Notes: generated by a model not told the origin, from the sequence alone. A DNA stretch of 64,000 nt from Escherichia coli (GCF_003334335.1 NZ_QOWQ01000002.1); one strand, 5' to 3'. Numbered from the stretch's first letter, positions 5,469 to 21,486 are shown. Made by a program: numbers and translations.

Positions 5469-7127
<1,659 letters not shown>

Positions 7128-7132
7128 TGATG

Positions 7133-7165
7133 CGCCACATCCGGCATGGTATGCCGGATGTGGCG
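7133..7165 (+). terminator. perfect 15-bp inverted repeat hairpin immediately after mqo stop (possible terminator / mRNA 3' stabiliser)
   Basis: cgccacatccggcat-ggt-atgccggatgtggcg; no T-run, so assignment as terminator is tentative. Confidence 0.4.
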
Positions 7166-7167
7166 TA

Positions 7168-8290
7168 TGCTGATAAGACGCGCCAGCGTCGCATCAGGCA
7201 ACCGGCTCGGGCGTTAGATGTTGGATGCGGCGTAACCGCCTTATCCAACCTACGGGGTGGAGCACTTCACAGCGGTGTAGGCCTGATAAGACGCGCCAGC
7301 GTCGCATCAGGCAACCGGCTTGGGCGTTAGATGTCGGATGCGGCGTAACCGCCTTATCCGACCTACGGGGTGGAGCACTTCACAGCGGTGTAGGCCTGAT
7401 AAGACGCGCCAGCGTCGCATCAGGCAACCGGCTCGGACGTTGGATGTCGGATGCGGCGTAACCGCCTTATCCAACCTACGGGGTGGAGCACTTCACAGCG
7501 GTGTAGGCCTGATAAGACGCGCCAGCGTCGCATCAGGCAACCGGCTTGGGCGTTAGATGTCGGATGCGGCGTAACCGCCTTATCCGACCTACGGGGTGGA
7601 GCACTTCACAGCGGTGTAGGCCTGATAAGACGCGCCAGCGTCGCATCAGGCAACCGGCTCGGACGTTGGATGTCGGATGCGGCGTAACCGCCTTATCCAA
7701 CCTACGGGGTGGAGCACTTCACAGCGGTGTAGGCCTGATAAGACGCGCCAGCGTCGCATCAGGCAACCGGCTCGGGCGTTGGATGTCGGATGCGGCGTGA
7801 CCGCCTTGTCTGACCTACGGGGTGCCGCACTTCACAGCGGTGTAGGCCTGATAAGACGCGCCAGCGTCGCATCAGGCAACCGGCTCGGGCGTTGGATGTC
7901 GGATGCGGCGTGACCGCCTTGTCTGACCTACGGGGTGCCGCACTTCACAGCGGTGTAGGCCTGATAAGACGCGCCAGCGTCGCATCAGGCAACCGGCTCG
8001 GGCGTTGGATGTCGGATGCGGCGTGACCGCCTTGTCTGACCTACGGGGTGCCGCACTTCACAGCGGTGTAGGCCTGATAAGACGCGCCAGCGTCGCATCA
8101 GGCAACCGGCTCGGGCGTTGGATGTCGGATGCGGCGTGACCGCCTTGTCTGACCTACGGGGTGCCGCACTTCACAGCGGTGTAGGCCTGATAAGACGCGC
8201 CAGCGTCGCATCAGGCAACCGGCTCGGGCGTTGGATGTCGGATGCGGCGTGACCGCCTTGTCTGACCTACGGGGTGCCGCACTTCACGGC
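7168..8290. repeat. tandem array of ~10 REP/BIME units (113-bp period) between convergent mqo and eco
   Basis: REP palindrome gcctgataagacgcgccagcgtcgcatcaggc recurs at 7168 (variant), 7281, 7394, 7507, 7620, 7733, 7846, 7959, 8072 and 8185, interleaved with a second REP-type palindrome (cggatgcggcgtaaccgccttatccg and variants); first units alternate two variants (226-bp super-repeat), last five units near-identical. Confidence 0.9.
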
Positions 8291-8293
8291 AGT

Positions 8294-8782
8294 TTAGCGA
8301 ACTACCGCGTTGTCAATTTTCTCTTCCGCCTTCCAGACGCGGTACTTCACATCTACATTGTCTGGCGTATACACCACGATCGGCAGCTTGCTGTTGTAAC
8401 GCAGCATTCCAGCATCGCCCAGATACGCGGTGACAAATTTCTTCTCTTTCTTGCCATCCGGGCAGGCCATCATCGTTGAAACCGGGGAACTGACTTTATC
8501 AAAGACATAATAATCATAGCCCCAGCCTTCCAGCGTTTTGTTTTCCAGCTTCCCGCCGAGACGATGCAAATTGCAATCGACTTCCAGCGTCTGACCGATT
8601 AACAGTTCTACTTTCAGGGTAGATTCATCTTCTTGCGGGGTTAACTGAATCACCTGACGCTTCATCCCTTTTTCAGCTTGTGGATAAGGCGCGATTTTTT
8701 CCAGTGGCTGGACGCTTTCTGCCGCCCAGGCGGAAGTGGTAGCGAAAGCGGCAAACAATACTGCAGGTAGAATGGTCTTCAT
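8294..8782 (-). CDS. eco: serine protease inhibitor ecotin
   Basis: Track ORF 8294..8803; I place the start at the internal ATG 8782 ([20 protein letters not shown] signal peptide, 162 aa) with AGGAA Shine-Dalgarno upstream. Confidence 0.9.
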
Positions 8783-8965
8783 TTTTTTGCTTTCCTTCTT
8801 CATTTATAGGTTTTCACCGATGATGTCGCTGAAGGTTAACATATTCATCAGATTTATTAATTTGCTTTATGAATAACTTAAAGAACATTCAGACAATTTT
8901 ACCTGCTCTTTTAGTGTTAAATTCTAATGAGAGAGCAAACCAGCAGAAATATCTCTGGTGAATCA

Positions 8966-21388: not shown

Positions 21389-21486
21389 GCCGGATGCGGC
21401 GTGAACGCCTTATCCGGCCTACAAAATTGTGTAAATTCAATAAATTGATCGATCCACGTAGGCCTGATAAGCGTAGCGCATCAGGC
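21389..21486. repeat. BIME: two REP palindromes in ccmH-narP intergenic region
   Basis: gccggatgcggcgtgaacgccttatccggc (21389-21418) and gtaggcctgataagcgtagcgcatcaggc (21458-21486). Confidence 0.85.

Follow-up and report, generated by a model that had tools for sequence, protein, structure and literature searches.

The window analysed here, a 64,000-nucleotide stretch of Escherichia coli DNA (GCF_003334335.1, NZ_QOWQ01000002.1), contains a tandem repeat array between the convergent genes mqo and eco. The stop codons of these genes, at 7127 for mqo and 8294 for eco, are separated by a gap of 1166 bp, and ten units of 113 bp follow one another head-to-tail over 7168-8293 (Table 1). Tandem Repeats Finder returned a single array at 7170-8287, with a period of 113, 9.9 copies, 97% matches, 0% indels, and a score of 1984. 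A preliminary description of this DNA had proposed a tandem array of this period, and all ten unit starts that it listed, from 7168 to 8185, were correct. Its statement that the array takes up nearly the whole gap holds for 7168-8293, but not for the first ~40 nt (7128-7167), which form a separate hairpin outside the array with an 18-bp stem.

We note several further features of the flanks and the wider window. Read from its first ATG, the eco ORF encodes 169 aa, and the RefSeq eco product for the identical sequence is given as either 169 aa (510 nt) or 162 aa (489 nt), depending on the genome. A search of 6900-8900 for sites resembling intrinsic terminators or promoters found none. Scanning the whole window at the Rfam gathering thresholds yielded ten matches to naRNA4, one for each unit, and besides these just a tRNA and an L25 ribosomal-protein leader. 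Lone single REP cores occur elsewhere in the window at 21389, 28568, 55437, and 58679.

Table 1. Features of the mqo-eco gap and related sites. Positions refer to the window, except for the last row.
Feature	Position	Strand	Basis or remark
mqo CDS (malate:quinone oxidoreductase), left flank	5481..7127	+	548-aa ORF; mqo in all RefSeq relatives fetched
Hairpin, perfect 18-bp stem with 3-nt loop, 3 nt past mqo stop	7130..7168		RNA fold -34 kcal/mol, z = -6.9
Unit 1, type A, left anchor; Z2 outer stem degenerate (TGCTGAT for GCCTGAT)	7168..7280		naRNA4 7168-7250 (-), 61.9 bits
Units 2-5 (BCBC), 226-bp segment duplicated exactly (higher-order repeat)	7281..7732		naRNA4 (-), 74.2-76 bits
Units 6-9 (DDDD), four identical 113-bp copies	7733..8184		naRNA4 (-), 63.7 bits
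Unit 10, type E, right anchor; 109 nt, abuts eco stop codon	8185..8293		sequence typing
Compensated pair in Y stem	7222/7247, 7335/7360 and equivalents (unit positions 55/80)		unit comparison
eco CDS (ecotin), right flank	8294..8803	-	ORF; eco in all RefSeq relatives fetched
tRNA and L25 ribosomal-protein leader matches	25204-25277 and 28993-29018	- / -	Rfam scan of window
IS621 in mqo-eco BIME-2 of other genomes	NZ_CP116480.1 1198-2851; NZ_AP027764.1 4233-6000 (extracted-locus positions)		counterpart of window 7128-8293

Units of the array shared a common internal architecture. Each 113-bp unit comprises an inverted Z2 palindromic unit (PU) of 32 nt, a 20-nt linker, a Y PU of 34 nt that includes CTAC, a 23-nt linker, and the tetranucleotide GTAG, and every Z2 PU takes its GTAG tail from the end of the preceding unit. 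Z2 reads GCCTGATGCGACGCTGGCGCGTCTTATCAGGCCTAC on the minus strand and Y reads GTCGGATGCGGCGTRACCGCCTTRTCYRACCTAC on the plus strand. The PU cores switch strand all along the array, with Z2 in one orientation and Y in the other; the 20-nt linker lies head-to-head between them and the 23-nt linker tail-to-tail, and both are constant in length. Together, the ten Z2 plus Y units make 20 palindromic units, with hairpin energies of -16 to -21 kcal/mol. The palindrome gcctgataagacgcgccagcgtcgcatcaggc, which the preliminary description had placed in each unit, is found in units 2-10, while unit 1 starts with TGCTGATAAG instead.

Grouping units that are identical in sequence gives the order A B C B C D D D D E. 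The earlier account of six alternating units followed by five nearly identical ones adds up to eleven; five units alternate, and the near-identity of the last five (DDDDE) stands. Unit E is a D unit shortened to 109 nt, with two differences, and the same right end also occurs in one-unit alleles. Differences among the types affect base pairing in the Y stem. At unit positions 55/80, type A carries T/A and types B and D carry C/G, a compensated change, and type C carries C/A, an uncompensated intermediate. The D-type Y hairpin stays paired only by virtue of three G.U pairs on plus-strand RNA and has a predicted energy of -15.9 kcal/mol on that strand, compared with -10.8 kcal/mol on minus-strand, eco-sense RNA. 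Since the D-type Y hairpin is weak on eco-sense RNA, the stretch gained by expansion may perform less well as an RNA element than units B and C do.

This organization identifies the array as a BIME-2, which agrees with the earlier proposal of a REP/BIME array. BIME-2 elements consist of z2 and y PUs repeated several times in tandem and separated by short linkers (Ton-Hoang 2012, restating Bachellier 1994), and their sequence is well conserved within one locus while copy number differs among strains (Ton-Hoang 2012). We base the assignment on every unit being an inverted Z2 plus a Y with fixed linkers. The array has one z2 and one y PU per element, alternating PU cores separated by 20 and 23 nt, and tandem copies (9.9 copies, 97% matches) whose number varies, both among the 175 rows sampled (one to seven units) and across a series of related alleles described below. 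It also occupies the gap between the convergent mqo and eco stop codons, a location consistent with this class.

A different class of REP element, BIME-1, was considered because the preliminary description had suggested that the array could be a site for IHF. BIME-1 elements are single-copy combinations of z1 and y PUs whose long L linker carries an IHF site, and REP clusters of this class bind IHF (Ton-Hoang 2012). Like the array, BIME-1 (RIP/RIB) elements contain REP PUs in alternating orientation and lie at the 3' ends of genes. However, the units in the window are z2 plus y rather than z1 plus y, they are repeated in tandem with linkers of 20 and 23 nt and have no L linker, and the IHF consensus WATCAANNNNTTR has no match within 7133-8290. 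An IHF-binding architectural site of the BIME-1 type is thus very improbable here, and the suggestion of IHF binding was not upheld.

The array is covered on either strand by successive ORFs of 55-84 aa, and its palindromes are regularly spaced, features that could be read as coding for small repeat proteins or as a CRISPR-like locus. The ORFs had no NCBIfam matches, and the gap is without an annotated CDS in every RefSeq genome inspected. Because 113 is not divisible by 3, the reading frame changes from one unit to the next, and ORFs run for only about two units. The ladder of 78-84-aa ORFs that had been described as spurious is present and is just that, and we give the coding or CRISPR-like alternative practically no weight. 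For a CRISPR-like array specifically, the apparent spacers are constant linkers and not variable sequences, and this candidate was rejected.

The array is a longer version of one already catalogued in K-12. In K-12, the mqo-eco array has six units in a 714-bp gap and carries the EcoCyc name REP161, an identity that the preliminary description missed, as it did the naRNA4 match of every unit. Its suggestion that the K-12 gap is shorter was accurate. REP161 and the array in the window share the locus, the flanking genes, the hairpin at the mqo stop, and unit types A, B, C, D, and E. They differ in unit number (ten in the window versus six in K-12, or 1166 versus 714 bp), with one additional C and three additional D units in the window, and by one SNP in the hairpin, at 7131, where the window has G and K-12 has A. 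The RefSeq record of MG1655 lists no REP features in the mqo-eco gap. For W3110, Table DS3 of Sutormin 2018 contains an entry "BIMEs2 2308874-2309528, 654 bp, eco>-<mqo". Both the type and the location of the locus are therefore already known, and the unusual feature of the window is the length of the allele alone, as assembled.

Gyrase acts at this locus in K-12, in line with the earlier suggestion of gyrase binding. The entry for the eco-mqo BIME-2 in Table DS3 of Sutormin 2018 gives 11 gyrase cleavage sites with ciprofloxacin, seven with rifampicin plus ciprofloxacin, two with microcin B17, and five with oxolinic acid. The same table cites "Espeli, Boccard 1997: 6 cuts" for eco-mqo, which corresponds to one per K-12 unit. 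Gyrase favours y over z2 REPs, and the signal at REPs goes up when transcription is blocked (Sutormin 2018). Cleavage in vivo is thus shown for the K-12 allele, and by extension it would be expected for the ten-unit allele. REP161 has also appeared among eight REP regions that were protected from exonuclease after stress, a study that obtained no evidence of circles (2024 preprint).

Copy number at the mqo-eco locus varied widely across E. coli. To size the gap, we used flank-only queries of 2400, 1200, and 760 nt, with pieces joined and counts taken cumulatively, in 5422 complete genomes with both flanks. A gap no longer than 880 bp, equivalent to seven or fewer units, was present in 5368 of the 5422 genomes (99.0%); the cumulative count rose to 5374 genomes at 1100 bp and to 5399 at 1700 bp. 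We counted units in 175 rows making up three evenly spread samples, between which a genome may recur. One unit was the commonest state (107 rows, 61%), followed by six units (35 rows); five units were seen in 11 rows, three in nine, seven in seven, four in five, and two in one, and no row had eight or more. Arrays of seven units recur independently, B lineage included. The one-unit allele, found in UTI89 and O157, consists of the hairpin and one unit with an A-type left end and an E-type right end. Copy number at this locus is a true VNTR, and the allele in the window lies at or above the upper end of its range. These results bear out two earlier suppositions, that an array this long is unusual and that copy number is variable, and not invariant, among strains.

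Neither the ten-unit allele nor a run of four D units before E was found in any of 5,426 complete E. coli assemblies queried with array-containing sequences, for which coverage does not discriminate copy number, as overlapping pieces are joined. A pattern scan for the unit junction across one genome per species matched only Escherichia sp. E1V33, with 2.9 copies, and the E. coli representative gave no match, evidently because it lacks an exact junction between units. We found no use of the mqo-eco array in MLVA typing in the literature.

Most long gaps at this locus reflect a mobile element instead of additional units. Both large gaps that we opened contained IS621, of the IS110 family, inserted precisely where two units meet, with GTAG on one side and GCCTGATAAG, the Z2 tail, on the other (Table 1). 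A query built on this insertion structure placed IS621 within the mqo-eco BIME-2 of at least 26 complete E. coli genomes; among the 25 genomes whose gap measures 1100-1700 bp, 23 have it. Gaps of 880-1100 bp were present in six genomes. Given that long gaps are mostly due to IS621, true arrays of ten or more units would number at most a handful among the 5,422 genomes.

The order of unit types in related alleles points to gain and loss of whole units. Compared with ABCBCDDDDE in the window, the array reads ABCBDE in MG1655, HMS174, and AB1157, ABCDE in PEC1009, ABCBE in NCTC9100, ABCBFE in VG48B2, where F is a D/B recombinant, and ABCDDG in HMDUC-17. Among genomes with near-identical flanks, alleles differ by the presence or absence of entire units, in register, and the end units A and E are fixed. 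The one C and three D units that distinguish the window from K-12 are the pattern expected from slippage or unequal recombination between 113-bp repeats. The unit order therefore fits the recent amplification that had been proposed, and the allelic series shows that the ten copies arose as complete units of 113 bp or 226 bp were added and removed, in register, between fixed ends.

Several routes could have produced this amplification, namely replication slippage, unequal recombination, or amplification mediated by TnpA(REP). Models of tandem amplification for such REP arrays include one driven by TnpA(REP) (Ton-Hoang 2012), and REP161 has been predicted to consist of RAYT-associated REPINs (2024 preprint). 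The array resembles REPIN/RAYT systems in having REP doublets that carry the GTAG/CTAC tetranucleotide recognised by TnpA(REP). In contrast with those systems, the locus in the window includes no tnpA(REP) gene, and its in-register variation is explicable by ordinary slippage or recombination alone, without RAYT.

Laboratory derivatives of K-12 also differ at the array. In addition to ABCBDE, we observed ABDE in C600 (C600-p2-3), ABDDDE in EMG2, WG1, and EC600, and ABCBDDE in K-12 CP178206. These differences suggest change within decades of laboratory culture, or they could be differences in assembly or polishing. The pedigree of the strains fits no simple order of array changes.

The same disagreement among K-12 assemblies is relevant to whether the ten units in the window are real. 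The source array may have been shorter (e.g., five to seven units), with the run of identical D units mis-resolved during assembly or polishing: the four D units show no differences across their 452 bp, a length beyond that of short reads, the closest relatives by flank have five or six units, and the absence of the allele, or of four D units before E, from the complete assemblies is compatible with such an error. However, mis-assembly of repeats usually collapses copies and seldom adds them. The array is in exact register with both anchors intact, its unit order can be derived from neighbouring alleles by simple extension, and seven-unit arrays recur independently, B lineage included. We consider an assembly artefact unlikely and a genuine expansion of the K-12-type array the better account of the ten units.

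The hairpin next to the mqo stop codon probably acts as a bidirectional terminator of mqo and eco. Its arms resemble the left half of the Y PU (GCCGGATGTGGCG), each arm fits the PU pattern with one mismatch, and UTI89 and O157 retain it beside their single unit. In MG1655, a supplementary table of Harris et al. (2026, bioRxiv) has an entry at 2305063-2305108 for an overlapping (bidirectional) terminator, eco:mqo, in log phase, which overlaps REP161 and is given there as an 18/3/18 stem-loop of -33.4 kcal/mol. These MG1655 coordinates correspond to the window hairpin at 7130-7168, and the entry bears out the EcoCyc name of the array. The terminators in that table are reportedly those of Ju, Li and Liu (Nat Microbiol, 2019; reference 47 of the preprint) and are said to be based on measured RNA 3' ends. 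REPs located 15 nt or less from a gene end interfere with the terminating ribosome (2024 preprint), and the hairpin, at 3 nt past the mqo stop, may do so as well.

This terminator has consequences for which gene the array serves. As the mqo transcript in K-12 is reported to end at the hairpin beside its own stop codon, the array would lie in the 3'UTR of eco only, and on this reading of the terminator-table entry eco transcripts would cross the whole array before reaching the hairpin. An eco 3'UTR agrees with the strand of the Rfam matches and with the absence of an intrinsic terminator-like site in 6900-8900. The array had earlier been suggested as a transcriptional insulator or mRNA 3' stabiliser for both genes; a role in termination or at the mRNA 3' end fits the eco:mqo terminator entry and the work on REP325 described next, but it would not apply equally to the two genes.

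All ten units matched the Rfam family RF02564 (naRNA4), with scores of 61.9-76 bits that exceed the gathering score of 59.5 and alignments over model positions 1-77 of 77. These matches are on the minus strand, which is the eco sense, and include both hairpins, while matches on the plus strand were sub-threshold at 37-42 bits. The six mqo-eco units of MG1655 showed the same behaviour with respect to strand and threshold. One more match above the naRNA4 threshold was observed in MG1655 (NC_000913.3) between phnE and phnD, outside REP325 (69.1 bits, extracted-locus positions 1250-1330), so RF02564 picks up BIME-2 units generally, rather than one RNA gene.

REP325, located between yjdM and yjdN, is the type locus of naRNA4 and offers a close comparison. 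It has a period of 100 bp, 5.8 copies, and naRNA4 scores of 95-111 bits. Like the array in the window, REP325 is a tandem BIME-2 of Y and Z2 PUs downstream of a gene, its polarity to yjdM is the same as that of the array to eco, and its Z2 is one loop base apart from the Z2 in the window. The difference in period (100 versus 113 bp) is due to the linkers, which in REP325 are 13 nt head-to-head and 17 nt tail-to-tail, compared with 20 and 23 nt in the window. Scores in the window, at 62-76 bits, are lower than those of REP325, and the Y stem of the window has a compensated C-G to T-A change relative to REP325. In addition, the array lies between convergent genes, whereas REP325 lies inside a tandem operon.

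Taken at face value, the Rfam matches could mean that the units are RNA genes of the naRNA4 type, with the array transcript processed to ten two-hairpin RNAs that bind HU, bridge cruciform DNA, and condense the nucleoid in a dose set by copy number. That all ten units pass the threshold on one strand is consistent with this, as is the shared polarity with REP325, whose RNAs bind HU and are nucleoid-associated (Qian 2015). However, the match rests on shared Y and Z2 palindromes, the inner linker in the window is 7 nt longer, and the scores are far under those of REP325. The presence of a single unit in 61% of sampled rows also fits poorly with a dose-dependent function. The condensation role of REP325 has itself been contradicted: deletion or overexpression of REP325 left nucleoid volume unchanged, and no stable ternary complex of HU, crfDNA, and naRNA4 and no REP-REP contacts were found (Harris et al. 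2026, bioRxiv, which shares the author Adhya with Qian 2015). We regard a set of nucleoid-condensing RNA genes as decidedly unlikely.

Work on REP325 instead supports a role in shaping mRNA 3' ends. REP325 terminates transcription, partly through Rho, and stabilises mRNA, giving a ladder of truncated transcripts (Harris et al. 2026, bioRxiv). Counting against such a role for the array, the effects of REPs depend on context and terminal REPs do not lengthen mRNA half-life on average; convergent gene pairs with a REP in between have higher expression (Harris et al. 2026, bioRxiv).

Considering these lines of evidence together, we interpret the array as an expanded, ten-unit allele of the known eco-mqo BIME-2 (REP161), with its function carried over from K-12 and REP325, a reading to which we assign a probability of roughly 85%. 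Based on the K-12 literature, the Y units would be strong, transcription-independent sites of gyrase binding and cleavage between two convergent genes. By analogy with K-12, mqo transcripts would stop at the hairpin beside the stop codon, and eco transcripts would run across the whole array in the naRNA4-sense orientation. Following the REP325 model, the REP hairpins encountered by eco transcripts would terminate some of them, in part through Rho, and would also impede 3' exonucleases; a ladder of eco 3' ends would be the expected outcome.

As a discovery, the locus adds little, since REP/BIME-2 arrays, their copy-number polymorphism, gyrase binding, and roles in the 3'UTR are established and this array is catalogued in K-12. 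The census has value in describing the mqo-eco array as a clean VNTR, with one to seven units in 99% of 5,422 genomes. For annotation pipelines, ORFs called in this gap are spurious, and the repeat copy number in assemblies of the locus is unreliable.

A more speculative extension is that the array is a fast-evolving dial, in which every further unit contributes one gyrase site together with a partial terminator or a block to decay, alleles of one, six, and ten units tune expression or supercoiling, and ten units have been selected. We think this unlikely. If it were true, expression of ecotin, and of mqo via convergent read-through, or local supercoiling would be set by copy number, and selection, not neutral slippage, would account for the rare ten-unit allele. 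Natural alleles of one, six, and ten units provide a ready series for the dose effects of BIME-2 on termination, mRNA stability, and gyrase loading in E. coli.
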